Shown: positions 1 through 47,606 of the stretch, piece by piece | How positions within the stretch are numbered: position 1 is the stretch's first letter | Layout: each line of letters begins with the position of its first letter | NCBI GenBank assembly: GCA_964480515.1 | Contig: CAYZOT010000004.1 | Location: 77,020 to 141,019 of the forward strand | Direction: 5' to 3' | Length of the DNA stretch: 64,000 nucleotides | Source of the DNA: an uncultured Gemmatimonadota bacterium | Lineage (GTDB): Bacteria > Gemmatimonadota > Gemmatimonadetes > Palauibacterales > Palauibacteraceae | Made by a program: the position numbers and the translations under genes | Notes under the pieces: generated by a model | Database searches by the model: none | Seen by the model: only the letters and a program-made list of their open reading frames with translations | Told to the model about the DNA's origin: nothing

Positions 1-1913
1 TACGGAGACAACTGCAGGGAGAAGATCTTGAGTGGGATCCTTCGATCCCACTTCGTGACGATATTTCCACAGATGAGATTACACCCGGGTGGGTGTGTTA
101 TCACTTTGATGAAAAACTCGGAGAATACCCCTACGTCGGTTTGCTGTGTGGTGGGGAACTTCCTGTCGGGCGCAATGATGTGAAAAATGGCGGATTTGTT
201 TGCTCAGTTTCAGGGAAGCGGCGTGGTAAGGGGTCGAGCCGAGAAGCGTCCCCATACGCAGAGCGTTCGGCCGGCATTCGCGTCGTCATAGGGGAGAATA
301 TCGAGCGCATCTACGGCGAGAACTGTGCAAACATCGGTGTTCTAGCATCAACGGACTTTTCTCTTATTGAAAAGATCAGGAGTGGAGAGGAGATCCCGCT
401 TGAATCTTTTATAGGCAATGCAAGCCAAATTGAACGCGATATCATTGAGCACGGTGGCTTGCTTGAGTATGCAGTAGCACGACTCAAAGGCCTCGTGACG
501 GTACCGGAGATTGTGGTTGATCTAGATCGGCCAGAGACGATTGCCGAAAAGATCATGGCGCGACACTGGTTGAAAGACGGGGCCGGTGCAGAGCTCGGAG
601 TTCCAAGGATACAGCCAGGTGACACGGGCTTTTTGCGAACGGATCTTCGCTTTTCACATGAGTATGTGACCCCCATGGCTTCAACCTTCTGGCAGGATTT
701 CGCGGGTGAAGCAGATCTGAACGACACAGATTCAATTCTGTTCTTTCGTGACCACCTAGCTTTTTTAGATGAAGTGATCACAGAGGATCGCAAAGCCGCT
801 GGACTCCTGGATGCGGCGCACGCACTCCATGACTGTCAACGCGAGTTTGCGGCGGCCAAGGGTGTCCGTTTACACGGCGAACTCCCGGATCGTACGGGGA
901 GCGATGGGATCTGCCACATTATGATCCAGGATCGATACGCCTTCCCTGGCCAGGTCATCATCGGTAGCGACTCACACACTCCGCACGTCGGAGCGCTCGG
1001 GTGTCTCGCGTTCGGTGTGGGCACTTCTGCAATCGTCAATGCGTGGGCAACTAAGGATGTGCGGCTGGAAGTGCCCGAGTCCCTTCGCATCGAGATTACG
1101 GGAGATCTCCAGCCTAGTGTCACAGCCAAGGACTTAATGATCGAGATTCTGCGACACCCCACAGTGAAGAGTGGAGAGGCGATCGGCCGCATTATTGAAT
1201 ACACGGGCTCAACCGTTACGGGGCTAACGATGGACGAGCGCGTTACGCTCACGAACATGGCAGCCGAAGTCGGGGGTTTCACTGGAATCATAGCACCCGA
1301 TGAGAAAACTGTTTCTTGGATCTCTGAGAGACGCAGCATTCCGACGGAGGACATTTGGGCCATGTGCGAGGGGCTTGAAAGCGATCCCGACGCGCATTAT
1401 GCGGCCACGATCGAGATCAATGCTGGCCAGGTAGAACCTATGGTTGCGGCACCGGGCGATCCGGGAAACGGTATGCCGATCTCGGAGCTTGGTGAAAATG
1501 TGACAATCGACCTCGTCTTCATTGGGTCGTGTACGGGAGCGAAGCGAGATGACTTTGATATGTACGCGGAGGTCGCCCAGCGAGCGATCGCGGCAGGCCG
1601 CCGAGTGCCCGAGTCCGTTACTGCGTTTGCTCAGTTTGGGTCCATCGACGTTGAAGCGTACTGTGTCGACCGTGGCTACGACAAACTCCTCAACAAAGCC
1701 GGATTTCAGGTCTTAGCTCCCGGCTGTGGGGCCTGTATCAATGCAGGCCCCGGGGTATCGAGCTTGCCGGACCAGGTTACGATCAGCTCGATCAACCGGA
1801 ATTTTCCCGGTCGAAGCGGGCCGGGAAAGGTCTATTTGGCAAGTCCGCTCACATGTATGGCTTCTGCAATCGCAGGGTCTATCACTGCCTACAGGCCAAT
1901 AGGCAACTGGTAA
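1..1913 (+). CDS. aconitase-family hydratase with LeuD-like swivel domain fused N-terminal to a LeuC/aconitase catalytic domain; 5' end probably lies outside the window
   Basis: ORF 93..1913 stays open in-frame back to base 3 with no stop. GSSRE swivel motif, GSDSHT motif and Cys ligand motifs (SCTGAKRDD, CGACINAGPG) typical of aconitase/IPM dehydratase. Confidence 0.7.
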   Translation, partial: RRQLQGEDLEWDPSIPLRDDISTDEITPGWVCYHFDEKLGEYPYVGLLCGGELPVGRNDVKNGGFVCSVSGKRRGKGSSREASPYAERSAGIRVVIGENIERIYGENCANIGVLASTDFSLIEKIRSGEEIPLESFIGNASQIERDIIEHGGLLEYAVARLKGLVTVPEIVVDLDRPETIAEKIMARHWLKDGAGAELGVPRIQPGDTGFLRTDLRFSHEYVTPMASTFWQDFAGEADLNDTDSILFFRDHLAFLDEVITEDRKAAGLLDAAHALHDCQREFAAAKGVRLHGELPDRTGSDGICHIMIQDRYAFPGQVIIGSDSHTPHVGALGCLAFGVGTSAIVNAWATKDVRLEVPESLRIEITGDLQPSVTAKDLMIEILRHPTVKSGEAIGRIIEYTGSTVTGLTMDERVTLTNMAAEVGGFTGIIAPDEKTVSWISERRSIPTEDIWAMCEGLESDPDAHYAATIEINAGQVEPMVAAPGDPGNGMPISELGENVTIDLVFIGSCTGAKRDDFDMYAEVAQRAIAAGRRVPESVTAFAQFGSIDVEAYCVDRGYDKLLNKAGFQVLAPGCGACINAGPGVSSLPDQVTISSINRNFPGRSGPGKVYLASPLTCMASAIAGSITAYRPIGNW

Positions 1914-1952: not shown

Positions 1953-4667
1953 TCAGGAAGGTTCAGGTTCCACGCGAACAGGGCACACCTTGAGTTCGGC
2001 GGTGTGGGTCACGGGATCGTAGCCTCCACCAGTGAGGACATTGATCGGGACATCGTCGAAACTGAAGCTTGCAAAAACAGTCCCGAGTGGAGAGCGTTTG
2101 TTGGATTCAACTTTTATCCTGACAGATCCCCGAGGGCTTGTGAGTGTACACCAACCGCCATCTTCAAGCCCCCAGGTTGCGACGTCGCCGGGATTAACCT
2201 CTAGGGTCTCCTCCGATAATAGGTAGTCAATCCCCGCTGACCGCCCGGTTTGAGTTCGGGTGTGATAGGCTGCAAGGCGACGCCCCGTGGTGAGCCACAC
2301 GGGGAACTCTCCTGAGATCGTCTCCGCAGGGTCCCGATATTCGATCATTTGAAAGATTCCACGCCCGTTCTCGAACTCACCCTGGTGAAGGATCGGCGTC
2401 CCGGGGTGCTCTTTGTGAGGAACTGGCCACATGTACTCTCCCTGGTCGATTCGATCCCAATCCAATCCAGCGTAGATCGGCGAAAGTCCGCAAAGTTCAT
2501 TGAACACTTCTTTTGCTGAGTCGAACTCGAAGCCTTCAAGCCCCATACGTTGGGCGATTCGCGAAACAATCCACCAATCTGGCTTTGCCTCACCCGGCGG
2601 GGTCACTGCTTTCCGAAGTCGTTGTACGCGCCGCTCGGTATTAGCGCAGACGCCATCTGTTTCGGCCCATGCTGTCGCTGGAAGCACGACATCGGCGAGC
2701 TTCGCTGTCTCGGTGAGAAAAATGTCAATGACAACAAAATGATCGAGACTTTTGAGTGCGTGTTCACAGTGGTCTCGGTTGGGATCAGTGACAACTGTAT
2801 TCTCACCGTTGATAATCATGGCACGGATTAAGTCTCCGCACATATCCAAAGCCTGGACCTTTGTCGGCCCAAGTTCAAGATCAACTTCTTTTCCATAGGC
2901 TTCTGCGAACTTGGCCTGGTTGGCAGGGTCCAGTACCGATTGGAACCCTGGATAATTGTTGGGTAGTGCTCCGCAGTCTCCTGCCCCTTGGATATTGTTT
3001 TGCCCCCGCATCGGATTAATTCCAGTGCCTTCGCGACCAATGTTTCCCGTGACCAGGGCCAGGTTACAAAGGCTCTGAACGTTATCGACACCGCAAATAT
3101 GTTCGGTAATCCCGAGCGTGTAATAGATGGCACCGCGCTCCGCTGCCCCGTACCATTGTGCAGCCTGTTCGATAAGTTTGGCATCAACTCCAGTGATTGA
3201 TTCAGCCCACTCGGGTGGGTACTCGGCAACATGCTCGAGAAATTCGGTTCCTTCCGTGGTTCGCTCTTCGAGGAATGCCTCATCCACCAATCCATCCCTC
3301 GCGATGACATGAGCCATTGCGAGGAGTAACGAAACATCGGAACCGACTCGTAGTGGCAGGTGGATATCGGCGAGCTCTGCCAACGCAACTTGCCTAGGAT
3401 CAGCCACAATCAGCTTCGCCCCTTTGGCGATAGCACGCTTGATTCGCGTGGCAGCAACGGGGTGGCATTCGGTCATATTTGTCCCAATGCAAAAAATTAC
3501 ATCAGGTTTTTCCATGTCATCGAGTGGGTTCGACATGGCTCCTCGACCGATAGAGGCCGCCAGACCGGCGACCGTAGGGGCGTGTCAGGCACGGCTGCAG
3601 TTATCAATTTGATTGGTTCCGAACCCCCCTCGGATGAACCGTTGCATCATGTAAGCAGCTTCATGCGGAGCCCGCCCGGATGCGATCCCATAGACTGATT
3701 GTCGTCCATGATTTTCGGCGGCCTGCGCGAATCCAGTTGCCGCTCGATCGAGTGCCGTATCCCAATCGGTCTCATGGAGTTCACCGTCGTCACCACGGAC
3801 TAACGGTGCGGCGAGTCGTTCGGGGTGTGAAACAAAATCAAATGCAAACTGTCCTTTGACACATAACGCACCCTTGTTGGCGGGACCATCCATAGCAGGC
3901 AGGATCCCGACGACCTTGTCATCTCGCGTCATAACATCGACGGAGCAACCCACTCCACAATAAGGACACACAGTCCGCGTTTTCTCTGTTTCGCCCGGCA
4001 CATCTTTATTTGCAAGTGCTTTCACATCGGCGAGTGCACCAGTTGGACAGGTTTGTATGCATTGTCCGCAGAATGTGCATGCAGAGTCCTTGAGCAATCC
4101 TTCAAACTCGGTGGTGATTTGCGTCTCGAATCCACGGTTCATCATCGAGATCGCATAGTCTCCTTCCTGTTCCGCGCAGACGCGTACACACCTGTAGCAG
4201 GAGATGCAGTTTTCGTAATCACGCAGGATAAAAGGATTGTCGTCGTCTGGTCGGCTCGTGCCCGACCTGGACCCGGCAAAGCGTTTTGTTCGTGCGTCGT
4301 ACCGATCGAGTAGTGTCGCCATCTCAGCTGACGCATAACCTGATAGTGGATCAACATCGAGATCCCGATTCTCAGACCCAACCATCTCCATCAGTACGCG
4401 ACGGTGCATCTCGAGGCGAGCGGACTTGGTTGTGATTTTCATGCCTGATTGCGCGACAGTCGTACAAGAAGCGACTGGGTTTCGGGCACCTTCAATCTCC
4501 ACGATGCAAAGTCGGCACGCCCCGAGCGGTTCGAGACGTGGATCGTAGCACAGCGTGGGGATTGATTTGCGGTGGCGTTCTGAAACTTCGTAGATGGTTT
4601 CTCCACGAGTCACGGGCACACGTTCGCCATCGAGCGTAATCTTGTAGTCGTATTGATTCCGGTCCAA
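1953..4667 (-). CDS. fdhA: formate dehydrogenase alpha subunit (NuoG-like 2Fe-2S/4Fe-4S N-terminus plus molybdopterin domain), selenocysteine-containing; in-frame TGA at 3585-3587 decoded as Sec; TTG start with GGAGGA SD
   Basis: ORFs 3585..4667 and 1953..3536 are in the same frame, separated only by TGA. Read-through gives ...NCSRA-U-HAPTVAGLAASIGRGAMSN..., matching the conserved Sec context C-A-R-V-U-H-G-P-S-V-A-G of E. coli FdhF. N-terminus has CRLCIVEIEG, CISCYRC, CTFCGQC and CPYCGVGC Fe-S motifs. Confidence 0.85.
3550..3584 (-). other. bacterial SECIS-like hairpin immediately 3' of the Sec UGA of fdhA
   Basis: mRNA reads UGA CAC GCC CCU ACG GUC GCC GGU CUG GCG GCC. A 7-bp stem GGUCGCC/GGCGGCC (one G-U pair) with loop GGUCU starts ~11 nt after the UGA. 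The apical GGUCUG is identical to the E. coli fdhF SECIS apex at the same spacing. Confidence 0.6.
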
Positions 4668-4728
4668 AGTTCCTCCATCGCCGGTGGATCGGGCTAAGGT
4701 GCCCAGTAAAGATGGTGACTATCGGTGT

Positions 4729-4843: not shown

Positions 4844-6505
4844 TCATCGATTTTCGACACACGCCGCAACCTGATCAGGGAAGTACCGTAAGAGGCTTTC
4901 AGTGATTAGAGGGGCTGCTTGGCCTAAACCGCAGGCGCTCGTCTGTTTCATAGTTTGACCCAGATCTGTGACTTCGTCGACCCAGTCGCCAAGGTCAGAG
5001 GGCCCACCACCCGAAAGTCGCTCGGTCAGTCGGTGGGTTCCTATGCGACAAGGGAAACATTTCCCACACGACTCCTCAGCGAAGAATTCCATCGCAGCAT
5101 GTGCCACCTCAACCATATCGCGCGAATCATCGAATACCATGATGCCGCCTGCTCCCAGAAACGATCCTTTCGCTCTAATGCTTGATTCGTCGAGAGTGAC
5201 ATCAAGATCGTCTTTTGCGAGAAATCCTCCAGAGAGCCCTGCCATGGTCACCGCTTGGATATCTCGATTGCCCGGTGCACCTCCTGCCCAGTCCTGAAGC
5301 AACACTTGAAGTGGGAAGCCAAGCGGGACTTCATAGTTCCCCGGTCGCCTGATGTCGCCGGAAAGGCTGATGACTTTAGTCCCGGCGTGATCGCCTATGG
5401 CTAGGTTTCGGTACCAATCCGGTCCCTTGCTGAGAATATGGGGGATCGAAGCAAGCGTCTCCACGTTGTTAACTACAGTAGGGAGATTCTCATACCCGTG
5501 GGTTACCGGGAATGGAGGACGGTTGCGTGGGAAAGGGTGTTTACCTTCGAGGCTGTTAAGCAGAGAAGTCTCTTCCCCACAAATGTATGCTCCTGCGCCT
5601 CGTCGTACCCACAGATTGAATGGGCGGCCCGGCCCGAACGCCTCACTGCCCAGCAATCCTTGAGCCTGGGCTTCTTCGATCGCACGCTCCAGAATGTTCT
5701 GCGTCTCAGGGTACTCGTAGCGTAAATAGATGAACCCTCGGGTGGCCCCGGTTGCGAAACCAGCTGCCAACATGCCCTCAATTACTGCGTGAGGATCATA
5801 GTCCATCAGTGTCCGATCCTTGAAGCAGCCGGGCTCGCCCTCGTCGGCATTACATACAATCGTCTTGGGTTCCCCCTCGGCTTCGGCAACGGCCCTCCAC
5901 TTTCTTCCAGTTGGGAATCCTGCTCCCCCTCGGCCCGCGAGCCCGCTGGCGTCAATTGATTCAAGAAGATCTTGAGGAGAACCTGTAAGGGCGCGGGTCA
6001 GCCCATCATAACCGCCCGTCTCACGATACCCAGCGAGCCCGGCCCGTCCAGGTGTTCTGATTTGGGCGAAAACACACTCTTCTATTTCGTCGGGGCTTTC
6101 CGGTGGAAGGGGTGAATCGACATTTGTGAGAGTCGCCGGAGTGTCACCACAAAGTATTGTGTCGCCATCAAGGACGGGAACGGGTTGGTCGCAGCGACCT
6201 GGGCAGGGCATCGTGGTAGCACCATCTAGCCCATCTACAATCTCTTGAGCTCCGCGTAACGCACAGATTGGCCCGACACAGACCCGTGGTTTCTCCCGTC
6301 CTCCAGGTGTTCGGGCGAAGTGATGGTAAAATGTTACCGTTCCAAACAGGTCTGCAATTGGGATCCCGAGATCAGCTGAGATTGCCCGAAGGGTTTTCTC
6401 AGATAGATACCCATCGCATTGGTGAAACGCGTGTAGCAACGGAAGTAGTGGGGCAGGCTCGTCGCGCCAGGCGGCCAGCAGTTCCCCATCAGAAGGCCTC
6501 TTCAT
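4844..6505 (-). CDS. fdsB: formate dehydrogenase beta subunit (NuoF-like NAD(H)/FMN/4Fe-4S) with fused NuoE-like 2Fe-2S N-terminal domain
   Basis: GRGGAGFPTGRKW FMN/NADH motif, CGKCFPCRIG 4Fe-4S motif, N-terminal thioredoxin-like 2Fe-2S Cys pattern. Directly upstream of fdhA on the same strand. Confidence 0.8.
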   Translation of the reverse strand: MKRPSDGELLAAWRDEPAPLLPLLHAFHQCDGYLSEKTLRAISADLGIPIADLFGTVTFYHHFARTPGGREKPRVCVGPICALRGAQEIVDGLDGATTMPCPGRCDQPVPVLDGDTILCGDTPATLTNVDSPLPPESPDEIEECVFAQIRTPGRAGLAGYRETGGYDGLTRALTGSPQDLLESIDASGLAGRGGAGFPTGRKWRAVAEAEGEPKTIVCNADEGEPGCFKDRTLMDYDPHAVIEGMLAAGFATGATRGFIYLRYEYPETQNILERAIEEAQAQGLLGSEAFGPGRPFNLWVRRGAGAYICGEETSLLNSLEGKHPFPRNRPPFPVTHGYENLPTVVNNVETLASIPHILSKGPDWYRNLAIGDHAGTKVISLSGDIRRPGNYEVPLGFPLQVLLQDWAGGAPGNRDIQAVTMAGLSGGFLAKDDLDVTLDESSIRAKGSFLGAGGIMVFDDSRDMVEVAHAAMEFFAEESCGKCFPCRIGTHRLTERLSGGGPSDLGDWVDEVTDLGQTMKQTSACGLGQAAPLITESLLRYFPDQVAACVENR

Positions 6506-6589: not shown

Positions 6590-7429
6590 ATGATCTCTCC
6601 TCGTCGCAGCATGGTGCGCATAGACGTCAATCGTTTTGCTGGAAAATCATCCCGCAATCGCCGAGATGCGGTAGCGGTTGAGGAACCACTCGAGATCCGA
6701 TTGGCTACACCGCAAGGTGACGAGCACCAGGTAGCCGTTACGATGCGTACCCCAGGCGACGACTTTGACCTTACCGCCGGATTCCTCTTCTCGGAAGGTT
6801 TGATTCAACGGCGGTCCGATGTTTTGGATCTTCGATACTGCACCAATGTTGATGTCCAGGAATACAATGTTATGACTGTGCAGCTAAGTGAGGGTACGAG
6901 CTTCAACCCCACTGATCTGACTCGAAACTTTTATACCACCTCGAGCTGCGGAGTATGCGGAAAGGCGTCACTAGAGGCGATCGAGATACAAGGGTGCACG
7001 CCTCTTCTTGAGGATGGGCTTGTGATTAAGAGTCAGGTGATCCGAACGTTACCAAGCGTGCTTCGAGAAGGGCAACAAATATTTGAACGTACCGGAGGCC
7101 TCCACGCAGCGGGGTTGTTCAACGTTGACGGAGATCTCCAAATCCTCCGTGAGGATGTGGGTCGACACAACGCGCTCGATAAAGTGATTGGGAACCGGTT
7201 TCTAGAAGACGGTTTGCCGCTTAAAGGATCGGTTCTCGCGGTCAGTGGTCGAGCTTCATTCGAGATTATGCAAAAAGCTCTGATGGCAGGTGTTGCTGTG
7301 ATTGTAGCAGTCGGCGCTCCCTCGAGCCTTGCGGTGGATGTGGCGAGCGAGTTCGGTATGACCCTAGTTGGGTTTACCAAAGAGGCGGGGTTTAATGTTT
7401 ATGCTGGAACCTCGCGCGTCTCCTTGTGA
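6590..7429 (+). CDS. fdhD: formate dehydrogenase accessory sulfurtransferase FdhD
   Basis: SSCGVCGK active-site motif and size (279 aa). Divergently placed next to the fds operon. Confidence 0.8.
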   Translation: MISPRRSMVRIDVNRFAGKSSRNRRDAVAVEEPLEIRLATPQGDEHQVAVTMRTPGDDFDLTAGFLFSEGLIQRRSDVLDLRYCTNVDVQEYNVMTVQLSEGTSFNPTDLTRNFYTTSSCGVCGKASLEAIEIQGCTPLLEDGLVIKSQVIRTLPSVLREGQQIFERTGGLHAAGLFNVDGDLQILREDVGRHNALDKVIGNRFLEDGLPLKGSVLAVSGRASFEIMQKALMAGVAVIVAVGAPSSLAVDVASEFGMTLVGFTKEAGFNVYAGTSRVSL

Positions 7430-10486: not shown

Positions 10487-11632
10487 GTGGTCAACCTAAT
10501 GACGTCGCATCCTTCGTCTGTTCTCAGAGTAATTCCGGTCGTGACGCGAGAAGATCTAAACCAGTTCATCTCCTTACCTTGGTCTATCTACGGTGACGAT
10601 CCACACTGGGTTCCTCCACTGAAGTCAGATGTGCGAAATGCATTCGATCATGAAAAGCATCCTTTTCATAGACACTCCGAGGCACAACCGTTTCTAGCGC
10701 TTCGGGATTCGGTACCCGTCGGGCGAATATGCGCGATTCGCAACCGTAATCATGAAACGTTTCATAAGGAGCCGGTGGGCTTCTTCGGGTGGTTTGAGTG
10801 TGTGGACGATGTTGAAGTGGCGGCTGCCCTTTTCGATGTAGTTCGGAAATGGCTCCGTCTCCGTGATCTCAAGATCATGCGAGGCCCGACGAGCTTTTCC
10901 ACAAACGAGACATGCGGCCTGCTTATAGATGGTGAACCAGGTCCGCCGTCCGTCATGATGGCATACAACCCCAAGTATTATCCCAACCTTTTGCAAGCGT
11001 GTGGCCTCACAAAAGTAAAAGACCTCTATGCCTGGCAAATGGACGATCAAATGGATATGGGGTACTTATTGCGAGGAGAAAAGCTTGTAACACGTCGCTA
11101 CGGGATCACGATGCGGTCGCTCGACATGGCTAAGTTCGATACGGAGTTGGAGACGGTCAGGTCGATCTATAATGCGGCATGGGAGAAAAACTGGGGTTTT
11201 GTGCCCATGACGGATGGAGAGATTGATCATATGGCAGCTGAACTCAAACCGATCTTGGAACCGAAGCTTGCCTTGTTTGTTGAAGATCCAGACGGGGTAC
11301 CAATCGGTTTTGCACTAGCCTTGCCAGACTTCAACCAGGTTCTCAAGAAGATGGATGGCAAACTGTGGCCTTTTGGCATCCTTAAGGCGCTCATCGCAAA
11401 GCGCCGAATCAACTGGATGCGTGTGATCATTCTCGGGCTCGTTGAGGAATGGCGTGGAAAAGGGATCGATGTTCTGCTTTATCTCGGTATGATTCGAGCT
11501 GGCAGGGAGGTTGGGATCACAGAGGGGGAGCAGTCTTGGATTCTTGAGGACAATGACAAGATGAACGCCTCGATCAAGCGTCTTGGGGGTCAGATGTACC
11601 GTACCTACCGCCTCTACGAAATTCCCCTATAA
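10487..11632 (+). CDS. GNAT-fold N-acyltransferase-like protein (candidate bacterial ceramide synthase)
   Basis: 381 aa, two acyltransferase-like halves, no TM segments. 49 bp downstream of the SPT-like gene on the same strand. Confidence 0.45.
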   Translation: MVNLMTSHPSSVLRVIPVVTREDLNQFISLPWSIYGDDPHWVPPLKSDVRNAFDHEKHPFHRHSEAQPFLALRDSVPVGRICAIRNRNHETFHKEPVGFFGWFECVDDVEVAAALFDVVRKWLRLRDLKIMRGPTSFSTNETCGLLIDGEPGPPSVMMAYNPKYYPNLLQACGLTKVKDLYAWQMDDQMDMGYLLRGEKLVTRRYGITMRSLDMAKFDTELETVRSIYNAAWEKNWGFVPMTDGEIDHMAAELKPILEPKLALFVEDPDGVPIGFALALPDFNQVLKKMDGKLWPFGILKALIAKRRINWMRVIILGLVEEWRGKGIDVLLYLGMIRAGREVGITEGEQSWILEDNDKMNASIKRLGGQMYRTYRLYEIPL

Positions 11633-13532: not shown

Positions 13533-14119
13533 TGTCGGAGAGCAGTGTGGCGAGGAGCTGCGTGGAAGAAGACAATCTGATCACCAGGGCAAAAGCAGGT
13601 GACCGCTCCGCGATGGGTGAACTGCATGAACTTCACGCACGTCGAGTATATACCGCTGTACGTCGTTTAGTAGGAAACGATCAGCTTGCTGAAGATCTTT
13701 CACAAGAAGCTTGGATCCGGGCGTTCGAGAAACTTGATCTGTTCAGGGGTGAAGCTGCATTTGGGACCTGGTTGTACCGTTTGGCGACCAATGTGGCACT
13801 CAATTATTTGCGGCGTTCATCGAAGAGAAGCTCCGTAGAAGCTGAGGCCAATCTTCCACGTGTCACGAAAGCTCAGGACGACGTGATTGTCGCAAGGCAT
13901 GTTTTGATGCAAGCGATTGATCAACTGCCCCCAGGATATCGCCGTGTCTTAGTCCTACATGATGTTGAGGGCTGGACCCACCAGGAAATTGCTCGGTCAC
14001 TCAGCTGTTCTCCCGGCACGTCGAAATCACAGTTACACAAAGCTCGAGCCCGAATGCGCGAACTAATGCAACCCGTCAGTTCGAGTAATGATGGCATGCG
14101 CGATAAAGCGAGTTTGTAG
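13529..14119 (+). CDS. RNA polymerase ECF-type sigma-70 factor
   Basis: Region 2 (EDLSQEAWIRAFEKLDLF) and region 4 HTH (GWTHQEIARSLSCSPGTSKSQLHKARARM). Confidence 0.8.
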   Translation: MMSESSVARSCVEEDNLITRAKAGDRSAMGELHELHARRVYTAVRRLVGNDQLAEDLSQEAWIRAFEKLDLFRGEAAFGTWLYRLATNVALNYLRRSSKRSSVEAEANLPRVTKAQDDVIVARHVLMQAIDQLPPGYRRVLVLHDVEGWTHQEIARSLSCSPGTSKSQLHKARARMRELMQPVSSSNDGMRDKASL

Positions 14120-14924
14120 GAATTTTGGTGAACGGTATAGACAGATGAATCAATCGGCGTCGGAACACCTGACAGCAGAACAAATCTCTGAGTTGCTCGA
14201 TGAGCCACGGAAGGACAAAGAGGATTGGTTCCATCTAGAAACGTGCGAGGAGTGCAGGGCGGAATTTGAACGGTTTAGCCGTATTCGCATGGCGCTATCG
14301 GCACTGCCGGACTTGGACCCTCCGGCCGATGAGTGGACGGCAATCGAGGCGAAATTGGATTCAAAGGAGCCTCGGATCAACCAAAGCATATTAGGATTTA
14401 GTTGGGATGCGGAGCGCCCTCATTTCATTTTCGGTTCGCACCAGTTGGCCGTTGCCGCTGCTGTTGCTGTTGTCGTTTTTGCGGCGGGTGTTTTCGCCGG
14501 GCTTCAGCTTCCGGGTCCGATTGGGTTTTTTGCTGAAAACACATTACAACCTGGCCTCTTGGCGCCCGCGGTCCAAGATGAAATCGTTTTGAATGAACCG
14601 ACGGAGCTTGAGTCGCAGCGCTCGCCGATACAACAGGCAGGTATGAGTGCTTTCGAGGGGGTGGAATTTGAGCCTGTTCGTCGTTATGAAGGTCGCTCGG
14701 GTCTTCTTGTACTCCGCGTAACACCACGTACGGCCGCGGCAAAACTAGGCTTACGGTCTGGAGACGTCGTGGTTGACGCAGGGAACCTGCCTACTCGTCA
14801 AGTCCCTGACCTGATCCAAGCCATAAACGCTTCTCAAGGGTCACCCCTCAGTGTTCGTTGGATCCGGAATGGGCGCGAAATGGTAAAACTTTGGCCAGCA
14901 AGTGAAATCCGGCCCAAAGAATAG
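14088..14924 (+). CDS. anti-sigma factor: zinc-finger N-domain, single TM helix, periplasmic PDZ-like domain (start may be at the internal Met ~14148)
   Basis: H-x3-C-x2-C (HLETCEECRAEF), hydrophobic segment AVAAAVAVVVFAAGVFAGL, C-terminal GLRSGDVVVDAGN... PDZ-like pattern. Overlaps the sigma gene. Confidence 0.6.
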   Translation: MMACAIKRVCRNFGERYRQMNQSASEHLTAEQISELLDEPRKDKEDWFHLETCEECRAEFERFSRIRMALSALPDLDPPADEWTAIEAKLDSKEPRINQSILGFSWDAERPHFIFGSHQLAVAAAVAVVVFAAGVFAGLQLPGPIGFFAENTLQPGLLAPAVQDEIVLNEPTELESQRSPIQQAGMSAFEGVEFEPVRRYEGRSGLLVLRVTPRTAAAKLGLRSGDVVVDAGNLPTRQVPDLIQAINASQGSPLSVRWIRNGREMVKLWPASEIRPKE

Positions 14925-21536: not shown

Positions 21537-22877
21537 CTAGAACCTCTCTAGACGAGGATTCACGACATTCGTGAAGATCGATCCAAACGTGTAGGAGAAT
21601 CCAAAAGAGAGCCGATACTCGTACCCGCTCTGCAGGATGCGCTGTTCAAGAAGGACTTCTTCTTCGGTCGCGTCACCGGCCGGTACGTTGAGTTGGTCTC
21701 GAATGCGCGAGTATCGGATGTTGGTGGTGAGAGACAGTCCACGGAACAACCGAATGTTAGCGCCCAGGTTAACGGTGGCACGGTTCTTGGAAAGATCGTG
21801 CAGGTACTGCGAGAACTCGAGGAACCCATAGGAGGTTCCCCATGGCTGCCGCACGCTCAGGCCCGCGCCAATCTTATGCAGCGGTAGCGTCTCCTTCATC
21901 TTGAGGAAGACGGTCTCCTCCACGTAGTTGGTGTGGCTCAGTCCAGCGGTGTAGAGGATATTGAACTGGCGTCGCGTCGACTCCGAGTATGGGAAGATGT
22001 TGAATTCGATCGCCGACGATAAGTCGAGTCGGAGATCTTCGTTGTCAAACGATGAATGTTCGGCTGCGTAGGCCATGCCGATGGACCAGTGATCAGAGAG
22101 GCTCCACACGGTTAAGCCATCGAGGTTGTAACTTTCTCGGACACTGGTGACCGATGTCGTATCGCTGGTCTCGAAGATGTTCTCGTCGTAGTCGCCGCCG
22201 ATCCCGAACTCCAACTTTAGATTATCAGTGATACGGGTTGCGGTGAAGCCACCAGAGATCTCATAGCTTTGCGTGCGCTCATTCACACGGAGGTTTCCGT
22301 TTCCGCGTACTCGGAATGTCCAGAAGTTCCAGGGATCCGTCTCGGCGGTTGCAACCCCTACGTCCCTTTCGAAATCCTCAGATATGATCCGGATATTAGC
22401 AGCCTGATCGGTCCTTGCGATGTATCGGATTAGGCCAAGCTTCATAGTGGCAGCAATCTCAGTGAGTAGACGCTCACGAGCGAGATTGGCCGGCGTGACC
22501 ACCTCTAGTCGGTCGTCGATGTCGACGAACTCCTCGCGGCCGATGAAGTCGAGGGTGAACCGCCGACCTGCACTTCCTGTCGTTTCCTGTGTTAGTAACA
22601 CGTGGACCTGAGAATCTTCCCGGTCACGCGTGTAGTTCACGAATGGAATCTCTTGGCGGTAGAAGTCAAAATCGCAGGGACCGGAGTCACGCCCACGCCC
22701 ATAACTTTGACAGTCGAAAAAAACTCGAAGTGCACCATTTCCTGCTTCGTCGAATGTAGTGTCCTGTGCGGTCAAAGCGGGAGGTACGGTCAGCAGTACA
22801 AAAAAAGCGACGAGCCGGTAGGCCACGTAGGAAGCATACACTCGAATGCTTCTGGATCTTGAAATAGGTGCGACCAT
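21537..22877 (-). CDS. putative outer-membrane beta-barrel protein
   Basis: Signal-like hydrophobic N-region ending ALTAQD, alternating amphipathic strands, C-terminal ...RLERF with terminal Phe. Confidence 0.5.
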   Translation of the reverse strand: MVAPISRSRSIRVYASYVAYRLVAFFVLLTVPPALTAQDTTFDEAGNGALRVFFDCQSYGRGRDSGPCDFDFYRQEIPFVNYTRDREDSQVHVLLTQETTGSAGRRFTLDFIGREEFVDIDDRLEVVTPANLARERLLTEIAATMKLGLIRYIARTDQAANIRIISEDFERDVGVATAETDPWNFWTFRVRGNGNLRVNERTQSYEISGGFTATRITDNLKLEFGIGGDYDENIFETSDTTSVTSVRESYNLDGLTVWSLSDHWSIGMAYAAEHSSFDNEDLRLDLSSAIEFNIFPYSESTRRQFNILYTAGLSHTNYVEETVFLKMKETLPLHKIGAGLSVRQPWGTSYGFLEFSQYLHDLSKNRATVNLGANIRLFRGLSLTTNIRYSRIRDQLNVPAGDATEEEVLLEQRILQSGYEYRLSFGFSYTFGSIFTNVVNPRLERF

Positions 22878-26041: not shown

Positions 26042-26509
26042 TCAGGTTTCTGTGATCTCCGCTAGCTCAGTGGTTATATCGATCGAGCCAGAAAGCGATT
26101 GATATACGGGACATTTTGGCGGGTGTAGTTCAAAGCTGCGTTGGATTACATCGGCGTATTTATCCTCCGCTTGAAGGTGATAACGAACATGAATGCGTTT
26201 GATCACGAGCACCCCATCCTCAACTTCAATCTCTCCCTCAGTTTCACCTATCAGTCGCCCTTCATCTGCCTTGACTCCGCGCGCTTCCAGCGCGCCCCCG
26301 AAGGTTCCGGTTAGTCAGCCGCCTGTCGCCGCAACGATATAGTCCAACGTCGTTGCCACGTCTCGATCCGGATTCACTCCATAGTGTTCAGCGATCGCAG
26401 AATGAACACCGAACTCAACAAGCTCATCGGTCACTGGTAACTGAGCCGAACGAAACGGACCTTTCTTTCGAACAATTCGCGAGCAGGAACGATAGACAAC
26501 GTTACTCAT
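26042..26509 (-). CDS. OsmC/Ohr-family peroxiredoxin-like protein with in-frame TGA (26315-26317) at the peroxidatic Cys position; candidate selenoprotein
   Basis: The N-terminal ORF ends ...DYIVAATGG-TGA. The same frame continues LTGTFGGALEARGV...ELHPPKCPVYQS...ITET* to the stop at 26042. The second (resolving) Cys motif H-x-x-x-C-P-V lies 68 residues after the TGA, the OsmC Cys-Cys spacing. ATG overlaps the upstream NUDIX stop (ATGA). Confidence 0.65.
26277..26299 (-). other. SECIS-like hairpin ~20 nt 3' of the OsmC UGA
   Basis: mRNA ...GGGGGCGCGC UGGAA GCGCGCGG...: 6-bp GC stem with 5-nt loop containing G; position and size are compatible with bacterial SECIS. Confidence 0.35.
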
Positions 26510-28040: not shown

Positions 28041-28532
28041 TTAGGGTGATTCGGCGGGTATCATCTCACCCTCGGTAAGCTCGTCGAGGCAATTCCACCC
28101 GAGCAGCGCACATTTGATTCGGACTGGGAACTTTGAGACTCCCGCCAGTGCGCGCAGATCTCCCAAGTCTGAATCGGACAGCAATGATTCATCGCCATGC
28201 AACAGTTGTGTGAACTTTTTGGATAACTCAAGCACTTCCTCAGGTGTTTTATTCAGTACTCGGCCAGTGAGCATTGACGCGGACGCTTGGCTGATCGAAC
28301 AACCGCGACCTAAAAAACATGCCTCGGCGATTCGCCCGTCCTCCACTCTTAGGAGCAATTCGATAACGTCTCCACAGAGTGGATTGTTCATGGTAATAGC
28401 GTGGGTGGCATCGTCGAGGGCACGTTTGTTTCGAGGTTTACGGTAGTGGTCGAGAATCAACTCCCGGTAAAGCGTGTTTAGTGTAGATGGTATCTTTCGG
28501 TCTACGCGCGCAGGATTCTGTGGATCGGCCAT
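28041..28532 (-). CDS. sufU: SufU/IscU-like Fe-S cluster assembly sulfur-acceptor protein
   Basis: NPLCGD ... GRGCSISQASASM motifs of SufU/NifU-like; directly downstream of sufS. Confidence 0.7.
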   Translation of the reverse strand: MADPQNPARVDRKIPSTLNTLYRELILDHYRKPRNKRALDDATHAITMNNPLCGDVIELLLRVEDGRIAEACFLGRGCSISQASASMLTGRVLNKTPEEVLELSKKFTQLLHGDESLLSDSDLGDLRALAGVSKFPVRIKCALLGWNCLDELTEGEMIPAESP

Positions 28533-28535
28533 GAG

Positions 28536-29840
28536 TCAGGCTATTCCACCGAAGACTTTGGCCGCCATCTGAAGCCCCTCACAAAGTGCATCAACTTCGT
28601 TGTGTGTATTGTAGAGGTAAAAACTGGCACGGGCCGTCGCACTGATGCCAAAATGATCCATAAGCGGTTGGTTACAATGGTGTCCAGCACGGATGGCGAT
28701 TCCGTTTTGATCAAGAATGGTCGATAGGTCGTGGGGGTGAATATCCCCGTATGTAAACGAGAAGACCGACGTGCGTTCTTCTGGTGGACCATAGAGGGTC
28801 AGGCCTTCGACAGCCGTCAATCGTTCTAGTGCGTACTTTTTGAGACTGGCTTCGTGGACAGCAAGGGTGTCCAATCCGACATCGTCTAGGAATCGGACGG
28901 CTTCCCCAAAACCAATGACGCCCGAAATGTTGGGTGTGCCGGCCTCGAACTTGTGGGGAACTTCTGCCCACCTAGAACCTTCGAGCGTAACTTCTGATAT
29001 CATCTCTCCGCCGCTCTGATACGGTGGCATTGTTTCAAACAACTCTCGACGTCCCCACAATGCTCCTACACCGGTTGGGCCGCACATTTTATGGGCACTG
29101 AAGGCGTAGAAGTCGCAGCCCAGTTCTCTCACGTCGAGCTGAAGATGAGGTGCCGCTTGAGCCCCGTCTATGAGAGTCAAAGCTCCAACAGCATGAGCCC
29201 GCTCAACGATGTCGATGACGGGATTTAGCGTACCCATACCGTTCGACACATGTGTAAAAGAAACCAGCTTGGGTCTGCGTTCGAGTAGTCGATCTAGGTC
29301 ATCCATATCGAGACGGCCGTCGACCGTGACATCAACGTAGTTCAGTCGTGCTCCCGTACGTTCGGCAAGGATTTGCCACGGCACAATGTTCGAATGATGC
29401 TCCATCTTCGTGAGGATGATTTCATCCCCTTCTTTTACGAAGGTGTCCCCCCAACTTGAAGCGACAAGGTTGATGGATTCGGTAGTGCCTCGGGTAAACA
29501 CGATCTCGCTCGAATCGGCCGCTCCCACATGAGCTGCAATTGTGTCACGAGTTTCTTCGTACGCGTCGGTCGCCTCGATACTCAACGAGTGGACACCTCG
29601 GTGCACGTTAGCATGCTGTTCTCGCAGATAACGGTCGACCCTCTCAAGGACGCGGAGAGGTCTTTGTGAGCTGGCCGCACTATCGAGGTAGACGAGCGGG
29701 TGTCCGTTAATCTTACGGCGCAGAATCGGGAATTGATCGCGAATCGCCTGAAAATCTGGGTTGGTCGATTTGTTGAGTGTCTCTTCAATAGCTTGGCTAT
29801 CGCTGACAGAGCTCCGATTTTCCGATTGCTTGGTTTCCAT
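28536..29840 (-). CDS. sufS: cysteine desulfurase SufS (class V aminotransferase)
   Basis: HHSNIVPWQ, SAHKMCGPTG (PLP Lys), C-terminal RAGHHC active-site Cys loop. Confidence 0.85.
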   Translation of the reverse strand: METKQSENRSSVSDSQAIEETLNKSTNPDFQAIRDQFPILRRKINGHPLVYLDSAASSQRPLRVLERVDRYLREQHANVHRGVHSLSIEATDAYEETRDTIAAHVGAADSSEIVFTRGTTESINLVASSWGDTFVKEGDEIILTKMEHHSNIVPWQILAERTGARLNYVDVTVDGRLDMDDLDRLLERRPKLVSFTHVSNGMGTLNPVIDIVERAHAVGALTLIDGAQAAPHLQLDVRELGCDFYAFSAHKMCGPTGVGALWGRRELFETMPPYQSGGEMISEVTLEGSRWAEVPHKFEAGTPNISGVIGFGEAVRFLDDVGLDTLAVHEASLKKYALERLTAVEGLTLYGPPEERTSVFSFTYGDIHPHDLSTILDQNGIAIRAGHHCNQPLMDHFGISATARASFYLYNTHNEVDALCEGLQMAAKVFGGIA

Positions 29841-29897
29841 CGCTACACTGGATCGAATTAGACTAGTTTCTTAAGTCGGCTCTTGGTGCGTTGCAGG

Positions 29898-30218
29898 CTA
29901 AGCCGCTTCAGTGAGGTTGACCTTGATGTCATCCCCTTCGACCTGCACCTCGAACGTTCTAACCGGCGATACCGCGGGTAAAGCCCGAGGAACCCCCGTC
30001 TCAATGTCGAATCGGGCTCCGTGGAGCGAACAGGTAATCTCACACCCGACCAGGTCTCCTGCCGACAGAGGGAACTCTTCATGCGAGCAACTGTCCTCGA
30101 GCGCGTATATTACGCCATCGCAATTGATAAGAACGATAGCAACGCCGTCCACTATCAAACCCTTTAGGTCATTCTTGGGCAGATCGTCTAATTTCGCGAC
30201 AGTAACAAATCCGCTCAT
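29898..30218 (-). CDS. Rieske [2Fe-2S] ferredoxin-like protein embedded in the suf operon
   Basis: CSHEEFPL ... CSLHGARFD Rieske boxes; 106 aa. Confidence 0.75.
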   Translation of the reverse strand: MSGFVTVAKLDDLPKNDLKGLIVDGVAIVLINCDGVIYALEDSCSHEEFPLSAGDLVGCEITCSLHGARFDIETGVPRALPAVSPVRTFEVQVEGDDIKVNLTEAA

Positions 30219-31642
30219 AGGCCGATTTTCTCTTCGATAGCCACTCGTACCCGCTCACGAACTCCGGCCATCGGTAGGCGACCCAGAACCTCATCGAAGA
30301 AACCGAATACCAGTAGACGTTCTGCCTGCCGTTGTGTAAGGCCTCGACTCATAAGATAGAAAAGTTGTGTGTTGTCCACTTGTCCGATTGTCGCTCCATG
30401 TGAGCAGCGGACATCATCAGCTTCGATCTCGAGGTTCGGAAGTGCTGTAGCATGGGACCCTTTGCTCAACAGTAGGTTTCGGTTGGTCTGATAGGCGTCC
30501 GTGAGCTGAGCTCCCACGTCGACCTTAATCAGGCCGCGAAACACACTTGTTGCCTTGTCAGTGAGCGCGCCTTTAAATAACAGGTCGCTGTGTGCGTGTG
30601 GTGCTTTGTGATGTTGAAGGGTGTGATGATCGAAATGTTGCTGGGCGTCACCGAACCAGAGTGCAAGCATCTCACTATCACTGCCTTGACCCAGGAGTCG
30701 GCTTGTCACATCTGTGCGCGATAAGTCCGCACCCAGTCCTACATTAAAGGTGATAACTTTCGCATTGTGGTGGGCCACGGTGTGTTGGGTGGAAAAGTGG
30801 GCAACCCCTCCCCCGTATTGCTGTACCGTAACGTATTCGATGCCTGCGCTATCCTTGCAATGGACGCTTGCTCCGTGCAGCGATACGGTTCGTTCATCAA
30901 GGTCCTCGGATATGAACTCCTCTATCACTGCCGCGCGTGCGCCTCTTTCCATCACAATCAATGAATGTGTCGAGGTGAGCATGCCAGGAGTTTTGAGGGT
31001 GTTGAATGTGTGAATTGGTTCAGGCAGTTCCACATCCTGGGGCACATGCAGTAGATACCCACCACTCAATATTGCAAGATGGAGGGTCCACAGTTTCTCT
31101 TCCGCCGTGCTTGGTCTCGTCTCAAACAGTGCTTTCTGAAGCAGTTCAGGATGATTTTCGGCGGCTTTAGCGAGAGAGCACAGGATAACGCCTGCATCGG
31201 CAAGCGCTTGGTCAAGCTCAACGTGCACCACGCGGCCGTCTTGACATACGACCACCCCCGCTCGGTCCCCTGACTGGGACAAGATTTCTCGAACGTCAGC
31301 TGGCAGCTCCTCATCAATATCTTCTAACTGTATTGCCGGAATCAGCAGCTCGAAATCAATCGTTGAAATGTCTGTATACCGCCACTCTTCCACCTTACGG
31401 GTGGGGAAGGGCAATTCCGAATATCGCTTCCAGGCTGTCTCCCGAGCAGAAGTGAGCGAAGAAGGTTCGGTGAGCTCACTAGCGAACTGCTCAAAGTTCC
31501 ATTTAGGTAAGACAGCGTCGGTTCTCGCCGCCGCCGTTGCATTGTTCAAGACTTCTGGTCTCCCTCTATTCCGTGGAGTGGTACGCTGTTTAGTTGTAAG
31601 GTTCCGAAGATCAGCCGACGGACCCTTCCATTTCGAGTTCAA
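30215..31642 (-). CDS. sufD: Fe-S cluster assembly protein SufD (start codon uncertain)
   Basis: SufB/D-family C-terminal beta-helix region; position between sufB and sufS. Confidence 0.7.
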
Positions 31643-33026
31643 TCAACCGATTCAGTTCGATCGCGTACTCAAGGGGCAACTCTTTGGCGACCGGTTCGAT
31701 AAATCCGCGTACGATCATCGCCATCGCCTCCGCTTGATCAAGTCCCCGACTCATGAGATAGAAAATCTGCTCGTCGCCAACCTTCGATACTGTGGCTTCA
31801 TGCCCAATGGAGGCTGTGTTTTCATCAATTTCGATGTACGGGTAAGTATCTGTTCGTGATGTCGCATCGAGCAGAAGCGCATCACATTCGACGTTTGATT
31901 TCGCATCTAATGCGCCATCATAGACTTTGCATAGGCCGCGGTACGACGCTCGACCCTCACCCCTTGAGATCGACTTTGAAGTGATCTGTGATGTCGTGTG
32001 AGGAGCCGCATGAACCACCTTTCCTCCGGTGTCTTGGTGTTGGCCATCCCCCGCGTATGCGATCGATAGAATCTCGCCGTGGGCGCCCTCTCCCACGAGA
32101 TAGCATGATGGGTACTTCATTGTGAGTTTCGAACCGAGGTTTCCATCAAGCCATTCCATTTTTGCATCTTCGTGAACTATGGCCCGTTGCGTGACCAGGT
32201 TGTACATGTTGTTCGACCAGTTTTGGATAGTTGTGTACCGGAAATTCCCCCCCTTTTTGACGATGATCTCAATTACACCTGAGTGAAATGATTCCGTCGT
32301 ATAAACGGGAGCTGTGCACCCTTCTACATAGTGTGCATCTGCTCCCTCATCCACGATTATTAACGTTCTCTCAAACTGGCCCATGCGCTCGGAGTTGACA
32401 CGGAAGTACGCTTGGAGTGGTATTTCGACCTTGACCCCTTTCGGGATATAGACAAATGAACCTCCGGACCACACAGCTGAATTAAGTGCTGCGAATTTGT
32501 TGTCAGCTTGTGGAATGACCGTGGCGAAATACTGCTTAAACAGGTCGGGGTGGTTTCGGAGACCATCTTCAATTGAATCAAAGATCACTCCTTGTTCTTC
32601 CCACTGTTCCTTGAGGGAGTGATAAACCATTTCGGACTCGTATTGTGCTCCAACCCCTGCCAGTGCTTTCCGCTCTGCTTCCGGGATCCCAAGCTTATCA
32701 AACGTATCTTTGATTTCCTGTGGAACATCATCCCAAGAACGCTCCATCTTGTCCTGTGGTTTGAGGTAGAAATAAATCTCATCAAGTGTTGCTTCGAGTG
32801 TTGAGAGATCACCGCCCCACTTAGGCATAGGCTTCGATTTGTAGATTTCGTAGGCCTTCAGCCGGAATTCAAGCATCCACTCTGGTTCCTCTTTATGAGC
32901 AGAAATTTGTCGCACAATTTCCTCGGATAGGCCCGGGACGGCTCGGAAGACTGGCTTGTCGTCAGTGACAAAATCGTACTTGTACTCGTCGAGTCCGAGT
33001 TCTTTAATGGTTTCGTTCTGGGGCAT
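31611..33026 (-). CDS. sufB: Fe-S cluster assembly protein SufB
   Basis: Highly conserved SufB pattern throughout (e.g. [20 protein letters not shown]). Confidence 0.85.
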
Positions 33027-33095
33027 CTTACTCTTCTCTTTCCTGAGGTTGCCTGAAATTTATTTGGCTCCAGCCTACGGCTGGTTTTAATTGGT

Positions 33096-33869
33096 TCAAA
33101 CCGTGGCTGCTGCCTGATGCAACCAGTCATACCCTTTGGCTTCGAGCTTGTTGGCGAGTTCGGGGCCGGCACTCTCGACGATTCTCCCTCCGATCATCAC
33201 ATGTACGTGATCGGCTTTGATGTAGGTGAGGATTCGTTGATAGTGGGTTATTAGCAGCACTCCCAAAGCTGCATCCTCTGATGACAGGGTGTTCACACCG
33301 TTTGCCACAATCTTGAGTGCATCGATGTCGAGGCCGCTGTCAGTTTCATCGAGAACTGCGAGGGCTGGTTCTAGAACCGCCATTTGGAGGATTTCATTTC
33401 TTTTTTTCTCGCCCCCCGAAAACCCGTCGTTCAAATACCGACTTGCAAAGCCTTCGTCCACCTTGAGCAGTTCCATCTTTGCAGTTAGCCGTTCGTGGAA
33501 CGCGAAGATATCCATTTCATCCTCGTCAGCGACGCGAGCGTTCATCGCTGTTCGGAGGAAATTGGCAATCGAAACCCCTGGTACCTCGGCCGGATACTGA
33601 AAAGCAAGAAAAACGCCAGACCGGCTCCTCTCATCTGGTTCAAGGTCAAGGAGATCCTCACCATTCAGTAAGATCTCACCTTTTGTAACCTCATATCCCG
33701 GGTGCCCTGCAATGATCTTCGCGAGAGTACTTTTTCCCGATCCGTTCGGACCCATCAACGCGTGGACTTGGCCGTGTCCCACGGTTAGGTCTACACCGTT
33801 AAGAATTTCAAGATCTTCACCGACCACTTTGGCGTGGAGGTCTTGGATAACCAGGAGTGGAGCTGACAT
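33096..33869 (-). CDS. sufC: Fe-S cluster assembly ATPase SufC
   Basis: Walker A GPNGSGKST, ABC signature LNDGFSGGEKKR, Walker B LAVLDETDSGLD. Confidence 0.9.
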   Translation of the reverse strand: MSAPLLVIQDLHAKVVGEDLEILNGVDLTVGHGQVHALMGPNGSGKSTLAKIIAGHPGYEVTKGEILLNGEDLLDLEPDERSRSGVFLAFQYPAEVPGVSIANFLRTAMNARVADEDEMDIFAFHERLTAKMELLKVDEGFASRYLNDGFSGGEKKRNEILQMAVLEPALAVLDETDSGLDIDALKIVANGVNTLSSEDAALGVLLITHYQRILTYIKADHVHVMIGGRIVESAGPELANKLEAKGYDWLHQAAATV

Positions 33870-45986: not shown

Positions 45987-46109
45987 GGTACCCAGATCCT
46001 TATAGATGACATGCAGTTTTTCGAGTCAGTTTAGAATGAAAAAGGGTTCAGTGTCCGCTTATAGACGGCTGAAAATTCGACAGGGGCACAGGATGGAATC
46101 CTATGAAGC

Positions 46110-47450: not shown

Positions 47451-47606
47451 ACTATTGTTTGTCCGGTCACTAGGTGCCTGTTTCGGTGCTTGATCGTTCC
47501 TCACTAGACTGGGGCCACTTAGATGTTTGCGCCACAGAGATGTACTAGAACTAAGGTCAATAAGGTGCCCCGAAGATTAACCAGGCCACGGACAAAAGAG
47601 TTTATA

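Follow-up and report, generated by a model that had tools for sequence, protein, structure and literature searches.

The 64-kb stretch of Gemmatimonadota DNA analysed here, referred to below as the window, raises the question whether two neighbouring open reading frames (ORFs) are separate genes, the remains of a broken gene, or one selenoprotein gene in which UGA is read as selenocysteine (Sec). The ORF listing of the window places them on the minus strand at 1953..3536 (527 amino acids, ATG start) and 3585..4667 (360 amino acids, TTG start). Both lie in one frame with the TGA at 3585-3587 as the sole interruption, and translation of 1953-4667(-) in this frame yields 905 codons with a single internal stop, which is preceded by the residues TNQIDNCSRA and followed by HAPTVAGLAASIGRGAMSN. 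An earlier note on this DNA had claimed that the two ORFs share a frame and are split by the TGA alone, and the read-through translation bears this out. The TTG start with a GGAGGA Shine-Dalgarno motif, proposed in the same note, is also found. The spacing between the two is short (3 nucleotides, nt), the TTG is shared by the closest relative (L001), and two further orthologues (L002 and L003) have ATG at about the same aligned position. Judged from sequence, 1953-4667(-) is very probably a single gene, fdhA, for a translated, Sec-containing alpha subunit of a formate dehydrogenase (FDH).

The in-frame UGA of the formate dehydrogenase gene

For domain searches of the 904-residue read-through product the stop was replaced by Cys. 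Pfam recognised Fer2_4 (residues 9-82), Fer4_Nqo3 (145-212), Molybdop_Fe4S4 (228-280), Molybdopterin (284-706), and Molydop_binding (791-896). A NuoG/HoxU-like N-terminal extension (2Fe-2S and 4Fe-4S) thus precedes the molybdopterin domain, which binds bis-MGD (MGD, molybdopterin guanine dinucleotide), as is characteristic of FDHs of the FdsA/Fdh1A type that are linked to nicotinamide adenine dinucleotide (NAD). The product also passed the curated equivalog model TIGR01591 (Fdh-alpha) of NCBIfam with 726.2 bits at a cut-off of 666.25, and its best solved structures, 7vw6_A (E 2e-195, residues 11-902) and 6tg9_A (E 6e-184), are each matched over nearly the whole length. In these alignments the in-frame TGA falls exactly on a metal-ligating residue, namely Cys386 in FdsA of Rhodobacter capsulatus (6tg9) and the corresponding ligand Cys in the tungsten FDH of Methylobacterium extorquens (7vw6). 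According to cryo-EM of the R. capsulatus enzyme, Cys386 is the Mo ligand and His387 and Arg587 are conserved active-site residues, and FDHs have either Cys or Sec at the ligand position (PMC7171172). Counted along the 6tg9 alignment, both conserved residues are present in the window protein, as His362 (His387) and Arg554 (Arg587). The check suggested earlier, whether the TGA aligns to the Sec/Cys column of homologues, therefore came out in favour of Sec.

A scan for orthologues in which each species was represented by a single genome yielded 80 loci of 22 kb each, with amino-acid identities of 69-97%. They comprise 77 loci from Gemmatimonadota (Candidatus Palauibacter, Longimicrobiales, and unclassified metagenome-assembled genomes, MAGs) and three from Verrucomicrobiota. 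The closest relative, at 97% amino-acid identity, is a Tara Oceans MAG, and the host of the window is a marine Gemmatimonadota bacterium close to Palauibacterales. All 80 loci have TGA as the codon that corresponds to 3585-3587, and each of the 78 full-length orthologues contains exactly one internal stop. On either side of the TGA the two halves of fdhA show similar rates of nonsynonymous substitution (dN, 0.08-0.27 in each), and the ratio to synonymous substitution (dN/dS) is 0.02-0.12 where dS is unsaturated. The 16 residues from the TGA to the next ATG (HAPTVAGLAASIGRGA) are nearly invariant among the orthologues, and these 16 codons are therefore translated.

Beyond this group, the window's clade forms one cluster in a library of representatives at 50% identity, and the representative of that cluster is a fragment beginning just after the stop. 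Distant full-length representatives have Cys at the UGA column (22 of the 22 with a readable motif), and many other representatives are fragments of about 540 amino acids that start directly past this column; the pattern is the usual Sec/Cys dichotomy of the FDH family. The best 120 database homologues are all C-terminal fragments of about 525 amino acids, some of them named 'molybdopterin-dependent oxidoreductase' by NCBI. Automated annotation does split the gene, as had been anticipated.

The genomic context agrees with an NAD-linked enzyme. Upstream of fdhA, a gene on the same strand (4844-6505) encodes a NuoE/NuoF fusion whose product matches the 'tungsten-containing formate dehydrogenase beta subunit' 7e5z_B in the PDB over residues 19-545, and this gene is present at the same place in 77/80 orthologous loci. 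Of the 80 loci, about 70 have an fdhD homologue no more than 6 kb away from the TGA of fdhA, so that both neighbours typical of NAD-linked FDHs, a NuoE/NuoF-like subunit and an FdhD gene, accompany fdhA. The earlier assignment to FdhF/FdnG-type enzymes holds for the Sec chemistry, which is the same, but not for the type of enzyme, which with its NuoG-like N-terminus is the NAD-linked FdsA/Fdh1A type. We assign it to the two-subunit Fdh1AB/FdsABG type instead because NAD-dependent enzymes are its best solved relatives and because of the NuoE/NuoF fusion upstream. The enzyme is thus predicted to be a cytoplasmic, NAD+-linked, Mo- or W-dependent FDH of the FdsA/Fdh1A type with formate:NAD+ activity. 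Among the window ORFs scanned, none was identified as a transporter of tungstate or molybdate.

The SECIS hairpin and the decoding of UGA

If UGA is decoded as Sec in bacteria, a selenocysteine insertion sequence (SECIS) is expected in the mRNA directly after the codon. In fdhA a 7-bp stem begins 11 nt past the UGA and carries a 5-nt loop located 18 nt past it. Folded alone, this apical hairpin has a minimum free energy (MFE) of -13.6 kcal/mol (z = -3.33), and one of 200 shuffled sequences was as stable; the stem with its GGUCU loop, claimed from the sequence beforehand, is present and folds as predicted. An Rfam scan by E-value of both strands of the window with 4227 families gave one match at E<=0.1. 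This is SECIS_3 (RF01989) at 3532-3590(-), which aligns along the entire model (positions 1-59) with 49.4 bits and E 2.3e-8. The fdhF-like model SECIS_2 reached 20 bits only, with the UGA and the GGUC loop aligned without gaps between them. The bacterial SECIS model comprises a loop of 3-9 nt, a stem of 4-16 bp, G in the first two loop positions, a distance of 16-37 nt from UGA to loop, and an MFE <= -7.5 kcal/mol (PMC13188914), and the fdhA hairpin, with GG at the first loop positions, agrees with it in every respect.

Conservation of the hairpin was assessed on 56 distinct orthologue sequences. All of them (100%) form the six inner base pairs of the apical helix, and their GGUCU loop does not vary. 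At one apical pair, three sequences carry a compensatory change from C-G to U-A; the outer pair is G-C, A-U, or U-A and is unpaired in 30 sequences. The constraint extends to synonymous positions, as the codons for V-A-G-L-A that make up loop and stem are nearly frozen at the third position (GTC 75/78, GCC 75/75, GGT 78/78, CTG 78/78, and GCG 75/78). The 9-codon window starting one codon past the UGA has a synonymous codon entropy of 0.328, the lowest of 475 windows along the gene (mean 0.963). By itself such a hairpin is less telling: a permissive pattern (TGA, then 9-13 nt, a stem of >=6 bp rich in GC, and a loop that begins with GGU or AGU) occurs at four TGAs in the window versus 0.36 expected from shuffles, and the shape of the hairpin is therefore not decisive without model score and conservation. 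The other three TGAs, at 10753 (+), 48861 (-), and 49557 (-), which are followed by loosely SECIS-like hairpins (loop beginning with GGU, spacing 9-12 nt), were dismissed as chance matches, being out of frame or antisense and without Rfam support.

Several observations weigh against decoding of this UGA as Sec. At gathering thresholds Rfam reports no match in the window, the 49.4 bits of SECIS_3 comparing with a threshold of 63. In the lower stem of the SECIS_3 model, pairing is poor (64% of cells). The U that is bulged in the E. coli/SECIS_3 consensus pairs with G (53) or A (3) in the 56 sequences, and the upper stem of the fdhA hairpin is an unbroken helix in place of the bulged-U stem of that consensus. 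Moreover, the machinery for Sec synthesis and insertion is not encoded nearby. ARAGORN found no tRNA gene in the window and no tRNA-Sec in 60 related loci either, none of the substantial window ORFs scanned contains a SelA, SelB, or SelD domain, and tblastn with SelD, SelA, and SelB lures hit neither the window nor any of the 80 related loci of 22 kb. NCBIfam recognised these lures at 620, 631, and 920 bits, respectively.

On the structural side, the 61-nt region folded as a whole is not significantly stable (z-score +0.48), and significance is confined to the apical hairpin. The Rfam lower stem and an alternative lower stem of the MFE fold were both rejected, covariation support being absent. 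The description of the element as an fdhF-like SECIS accordingly stands with respect to the spacing from UGA to loop, which matches SECIS_2 without gaps, but not with respect to the bulged U of E. coli fdhF, which is absent. The bulge-less hairpin presumably resembles that of Moorella thermoacetica fdhA, and recognition by SelB may be nearer to the Moorella mode than to that of E. coli.

With regard to the machinery, the earlier note had stated that the window lacks selA, selB, selD, and selC, and the searches agree. In the host genome these genes would lie outside the window. A possible selD-selA/selB cluster at 45000-49283, suggested by three ORFs of plausible size, was discarded, as these encode a YpdA-type reductase, an unassigned protein, and an M28 peptidase. 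In two Gemmatimonadetes bins from sponges, bin94 and bin43, SelA, SelB, and SelD are listed with one copy each among the clusters of orthologous groups (COGs; PMC5649159, Table S4). This COG table is the only source that we found on selenocysteine in Gemmatimonadota; a direct statement was not found in the literature.

A second gene of the window bears on the same question. A 64-codon ORF for an OsmC-like protein ends at a TGA (26315-26317) that is followed by 90 more codons in frame, and in the read-through product the match to Pfam OsmC (residues 55-148, E 6e-12) spans the TGA. In all seven orthologous loci fetched (L081, L082, and L085-L089) the TGA is conserved, and the GCGCGCU-GGA-AGCGCGC hairpin lies about 19 nt downstream. 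The homologues P0130, P0146, and P0186 have Cys at the UGA column. OsmC-like proteins are a listed selenoprotein family that was first found in Sargasso Sea data (Zhang and Gladyshev 2005). With a conserved TGA and hairpin of its own, this gene is an argument for decoding of UGA as Sec in the organism, and together with the SelA, SelB, and SelD COGs of the sponge bins it lends indirect support to a working Sec system. Both fdhA and the OsmC-like gene are found on one contig of another MAG (L003, L086) and in a further MAG (L002, L088). A motif-and-gap scan of the window revealed no convincing candidate for a third selenoprotein gene.

In public annotation the OsmC-like gene appears as C-terminal stubs of 90 amino acids ('OsmC family protein') or in code-4 translations that contain a spurious Trp, and its homologues stem mostly from short metagenome contigs. 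The Trp seen at the Sec column in P0121 and P0124 is an artefact of such a code-4 call (TGA=Trp), as the DNA has TGA in L082:579-1061, L083, L084, and L085:456-935. In L082-L084 the same call extends the product by 'WCC' beyond the true TGA terminator.

How else could the interrupted frame be explained? That gene callers report two fragments and that no Sec machinery is visible in the window would also be expected of a pseudogene, in which a nonsense mutation from Cys (TGC/TGT) to TGA had inactivated fdhA. However, the same TGA is retained in 80/80 loci from two phyla at 69-97% identity, the 78 full-length orthologues have acquired neither a second stop nor a frameshift, both halves of the gene are under purifying selection, and the codon is followed by a conserved SECIS. 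The invariant TGA and the single internal stop in all 78 full-length orthologues therefore effectively exclude a pseudogene, which we regard as extremely improbable. A sequencing or assembly error as the origin of the TGA is a negligible possibility, given that independent assemblies of 80 genomes, closed long-read chromosomes included, have the same codon. A reassigned genetic code would be a further way to translate the frame, but TGA also serves as an ordinary stop in the window, for example in fdhD (7427-7429), in the genes with ends at 28536 and 52675, and in fdhA itself, and the code is therefore not reassigned.

An ATG 16 codons past the TGA and the many products of about 525 amino acids in the databases could instead point to a split enzyme, in which translation stops at the TGA and restarts at the ATG at 3536 to give a 360-residue Fe-S protein and a 527-residue molybdopterin protein. 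The restart product would be devoid of the essential ligand residue and of His362, though, and the full-length Cys homologues are single polypeptides. Moreover, the 16 codons between TGA and ATG are almost invariant as protein, in addition to the RNA constraint imposed by the hairpin, and we consider a split enzyme highly improbable. Slightly more room is left for recoding of the UGA to a residue other than Sec, either Cys carried by a tRNA-Sec-like tRNA(Cys) or Trp through near-cognate read-through, since the inserted residue is inferred and Cys is functional at this position in homologues. Mukai and co-workers are said to have reported in 2016 that some bacteria deliver Cys in this manner; such recoding of UGA is rare. 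With its GGUCU loop the hairpin belongs to the canonical SelB-binding type, an unrelated UGA gene of a known selenoprotein family occurs in the same window, and SelA and SelD are reported from the related Gemmatimonadetes bins, all of which makes insertion of another residue very unlikely. What doubt remains about a Sec-containing FDH concerns mostly the identity of the inserted residue and the location of the Sec genes.

Feature coordinates and other genes of the window

Table 1. Features of the fdhA locus and of the second TGA-interrupted gene (coordinates of the window).
Feature	Position	Strand	Basis and remarks
fdhA, predicted FDH alpha subunit (FdsA/Fdh1A type)	1953..4667	-	Read-through product of 904 residues; predicted Sec361, with His362 and Arg554, at the active site
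UGA, predicted Sec codon (residue 361, putative sixth ligand of Mo or W)	3585..3587	-	Column of Cys386 in R. capsulatus FdsA; TGA kept in orthologues
Translation start of fdhA, TTG (4665-4667) with GGAGGA (4671-4676)	4665..4676	-	First start candidate of the ORF; aligned starts in relatives
Putative SECIS apical hairpin, GGUCGCC-GGUCU-GGCGGCC	3555..3573 (loop 3562-3566)	-	Fold, Rfam SECIS_3, conservation
Diaphorase subunit, fusion of NuoE-like 2Fe-2S and NuoF-like FMN/NAD(H) parts; compare Fdh1B of M. extorquens	4844..6505	-	Pfam 2Fe-2S_thioredx, Complex1_51K, NADH_4Fe-4S
fdhD, predicted sulfurtransferase for the sulfido ligand of the FDH cofactor, divergent	6590..7429	+	Pfam FdhD-NarQ, E 1.6e-63; ordinary TGA stop (7427-7429)
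OsmC-like protein, candidate selenoprotein gene, 155 residues	26042..26509	-	TGA 26315-26317 = residue 65, first conserved Cys of the family
Hairpin of the OsmC-like gene, GCGCGCU-GGA-AGCGCGC	26279-26295	-	Begins 19 nt past the UGA; -12.8 kcal/mol, z -2.65

The coordinates of the features discussed here are collected in Table 1. The terminator of fdhA (1953-1955) is itself a TGA, and UGA would thus be used twice in one mRNA with different meanings; a hairpin of the kind described above lies 3' of the Sec UGA only and is not found downstream of the terminator UGA. One Longimicrobiales genome has two TGA-containing copies of fdhA on a single contig, CAXXCM010000005.1 (L027, 208368-231073, and L042, 542388-565063). 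The copies are about 330 kb apart, have the same hairpin, and may be paralogous Sec-FDHs.

Convergent with fdhA is an aconitase-family ORF (93-1913 (+), 606 amino acids), in which the swivel domain Aconitase_C is N-terminal (39-84) and the catalytic domain occupies residues 244-595. A homologue is located within 6 kb of the fdhA TGA in 20/80 loci. The OsmC-like gene adjoins, together with rsgA and a NUDIX gene, a SUF cluster for iron-sulfur (Fe-S) cluster assembly at 28041-33869 (-), which encodes an ABC ATPase, two SufB/D proteins, a SufS-type class-V aminotransferase, and NifU_N. The gene order is the same in Candidatus Palauibacter (L081). The YpdA-family gene at 45000-45986 (-) codes for a putative bacillithiol disulfide reductase (TIGR04018, 400 bits, above the cut-off) and suggests that this Gemmatimonadota lineage uses bacillithiol. 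Four ORFs, at 46110-47504 (-), 10487-11632 (+), 21537-22877 (-), and 14088-14924 (+), encoding 464, 381, 446, and 278 amino acids, respectively, had no Pfam match at E<=1e-12, and the first of them was also without an NCBIfam match at E<=0.001.

Proposed function and relation to known systems

According to the reading favoured here, a Sec-containing, NAD-linked FDH, SelB loaded with Sec-tRNA(Sec) would bind the hairpin that emerges 11 nt past the UGA, and Sec would be inserted at this codon to give the protein of 904 residues. Sec361 would then ligate the Mo- or W-bis-MGD cofactor beside His362 and Arg554. Electrons from formate could travel by way of the [4Fe-4S] and [2Fe-2S] clusters in the NuoG-like N-terminal part to the flavin mononucleotide (FMN) of the NuoE/NuoF-fusion subunit, which is probably co-transcribed with fdhA, and from there to NAD+. 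FdhD would sulfurate the FDH cofactor.

The alpha subunit of FDH is the most widespread bacterial selenoprotein (PMC5029168; PMC13188914), with 822 organisms counted in PMC5029168. The identification of fdhA is thus a correct but ordinary call, because it concerns the commonest bacterial selenoprotein family, and it leaves the understanding of selenoprotein synthesis and of FDH catalysis unchanged. What stands out a little is that a Sec ligand is paired with an NAD-linked Fdh1AB architecture in facultative aerobes. Lineages of Palauibacterales have been described as facultatively aerobic chemoorganotrophs in an ecogenomics paper in which neither formate nor selenium occurs (PMC10469786), and Sec-FDHs have been described as oxygen-sensitive (PMC7171172). 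The enzyme might be a Sec-FDH that is exposed to oxygen in nature and, as such, of interest for CO2 reduction.

The main value of the finding lies in annotation, as fdhA of these Gemmatimonadota genomes is represented in public protein collections by fragments alone. Both fdhA and the OsmC-like gene are divided in public gene calls, which explains why they were overlooked, and formate oxidation and dependence on selenium are therefore missing from metabolic reconstructions of Palauibacterales. A broader generalisation is tentative and, at present, rather doubtful. It holds that all members examined possess an obligately Sec-dependent, NAD-linked FDH of the Fdh1AB type, and that at least the Palauibacterales-like ones have a Sec-containing OsmC-like protein as well. 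If this were true, formate oxidation and a requirement for selenium would be overlooked traits of these lineages, hidden by split gene calls, and the enzymes would add to the marine pool of FdhA selenoproteins, few of which are reported to be held by marine metagenomes.

Among known systems, E. coli FdhH, the product of fdhF with Sec140, has a homologous catalytic domain (1aa6_A, E 3e-145) and shares the succession of Sec and His at the Mo site, and in both genes UGA-CAC is followed by the GGUC loop in identical register. FdhH is, however, devoid of the NuoG-like N-terminal Fe-S domains and of an NAD-linked partner. Whereas the SECIS of E. coli fdhF has a bulged U, this U is paired in the window hairpin, as U-G, or as U-A in Verrucomicrobiota. 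Rfam SECIS_3 has the UGA position and the loop G-U-C-U in common with the window hairpin, but four model pairs are non-canonical in the window sequence, and the upper stem is formed in another register and without the bulge. The OsmC-like gene has the UGA at the first conserved Cys in common with the OsmC-like selenoproteins of marine metagenomes (Zhang and Gladyshev 2005), but its context U-L-T-G-T differs from their published motif UxxT.

The closest likeness is to NAD-dependent FDHs. The Mo-containing FdsABG(D) enzymes of R. capsulatus and Cupriavidus necator (6tg9, 6vw7) have the same architecture of the alpha subunit, with Cys386, His387, and Arg587 in the places of Sec361, His362, and Arg554, and an FdhD-type maturation gene is found near their genes, as in the window. 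They differ in having Cys instead of Sec and separate FdsG and FdsB subunits, which are fused in the window enzyme, and their FdsD was not seen in the window. Fdh1A of M. extorquens AM1 likewise has Cys at the ligand position and contains tungsten, as opposed to UGA/Sec and either Mo or W in the window enzyme. Nevertheless, Fdh1AB (7vw6, 7e5z) shows the same two-subunit layout with a fused NuoE-/NuoF-like beta subunit and is the best structural match for the alpha subunit encoded by fdhA.

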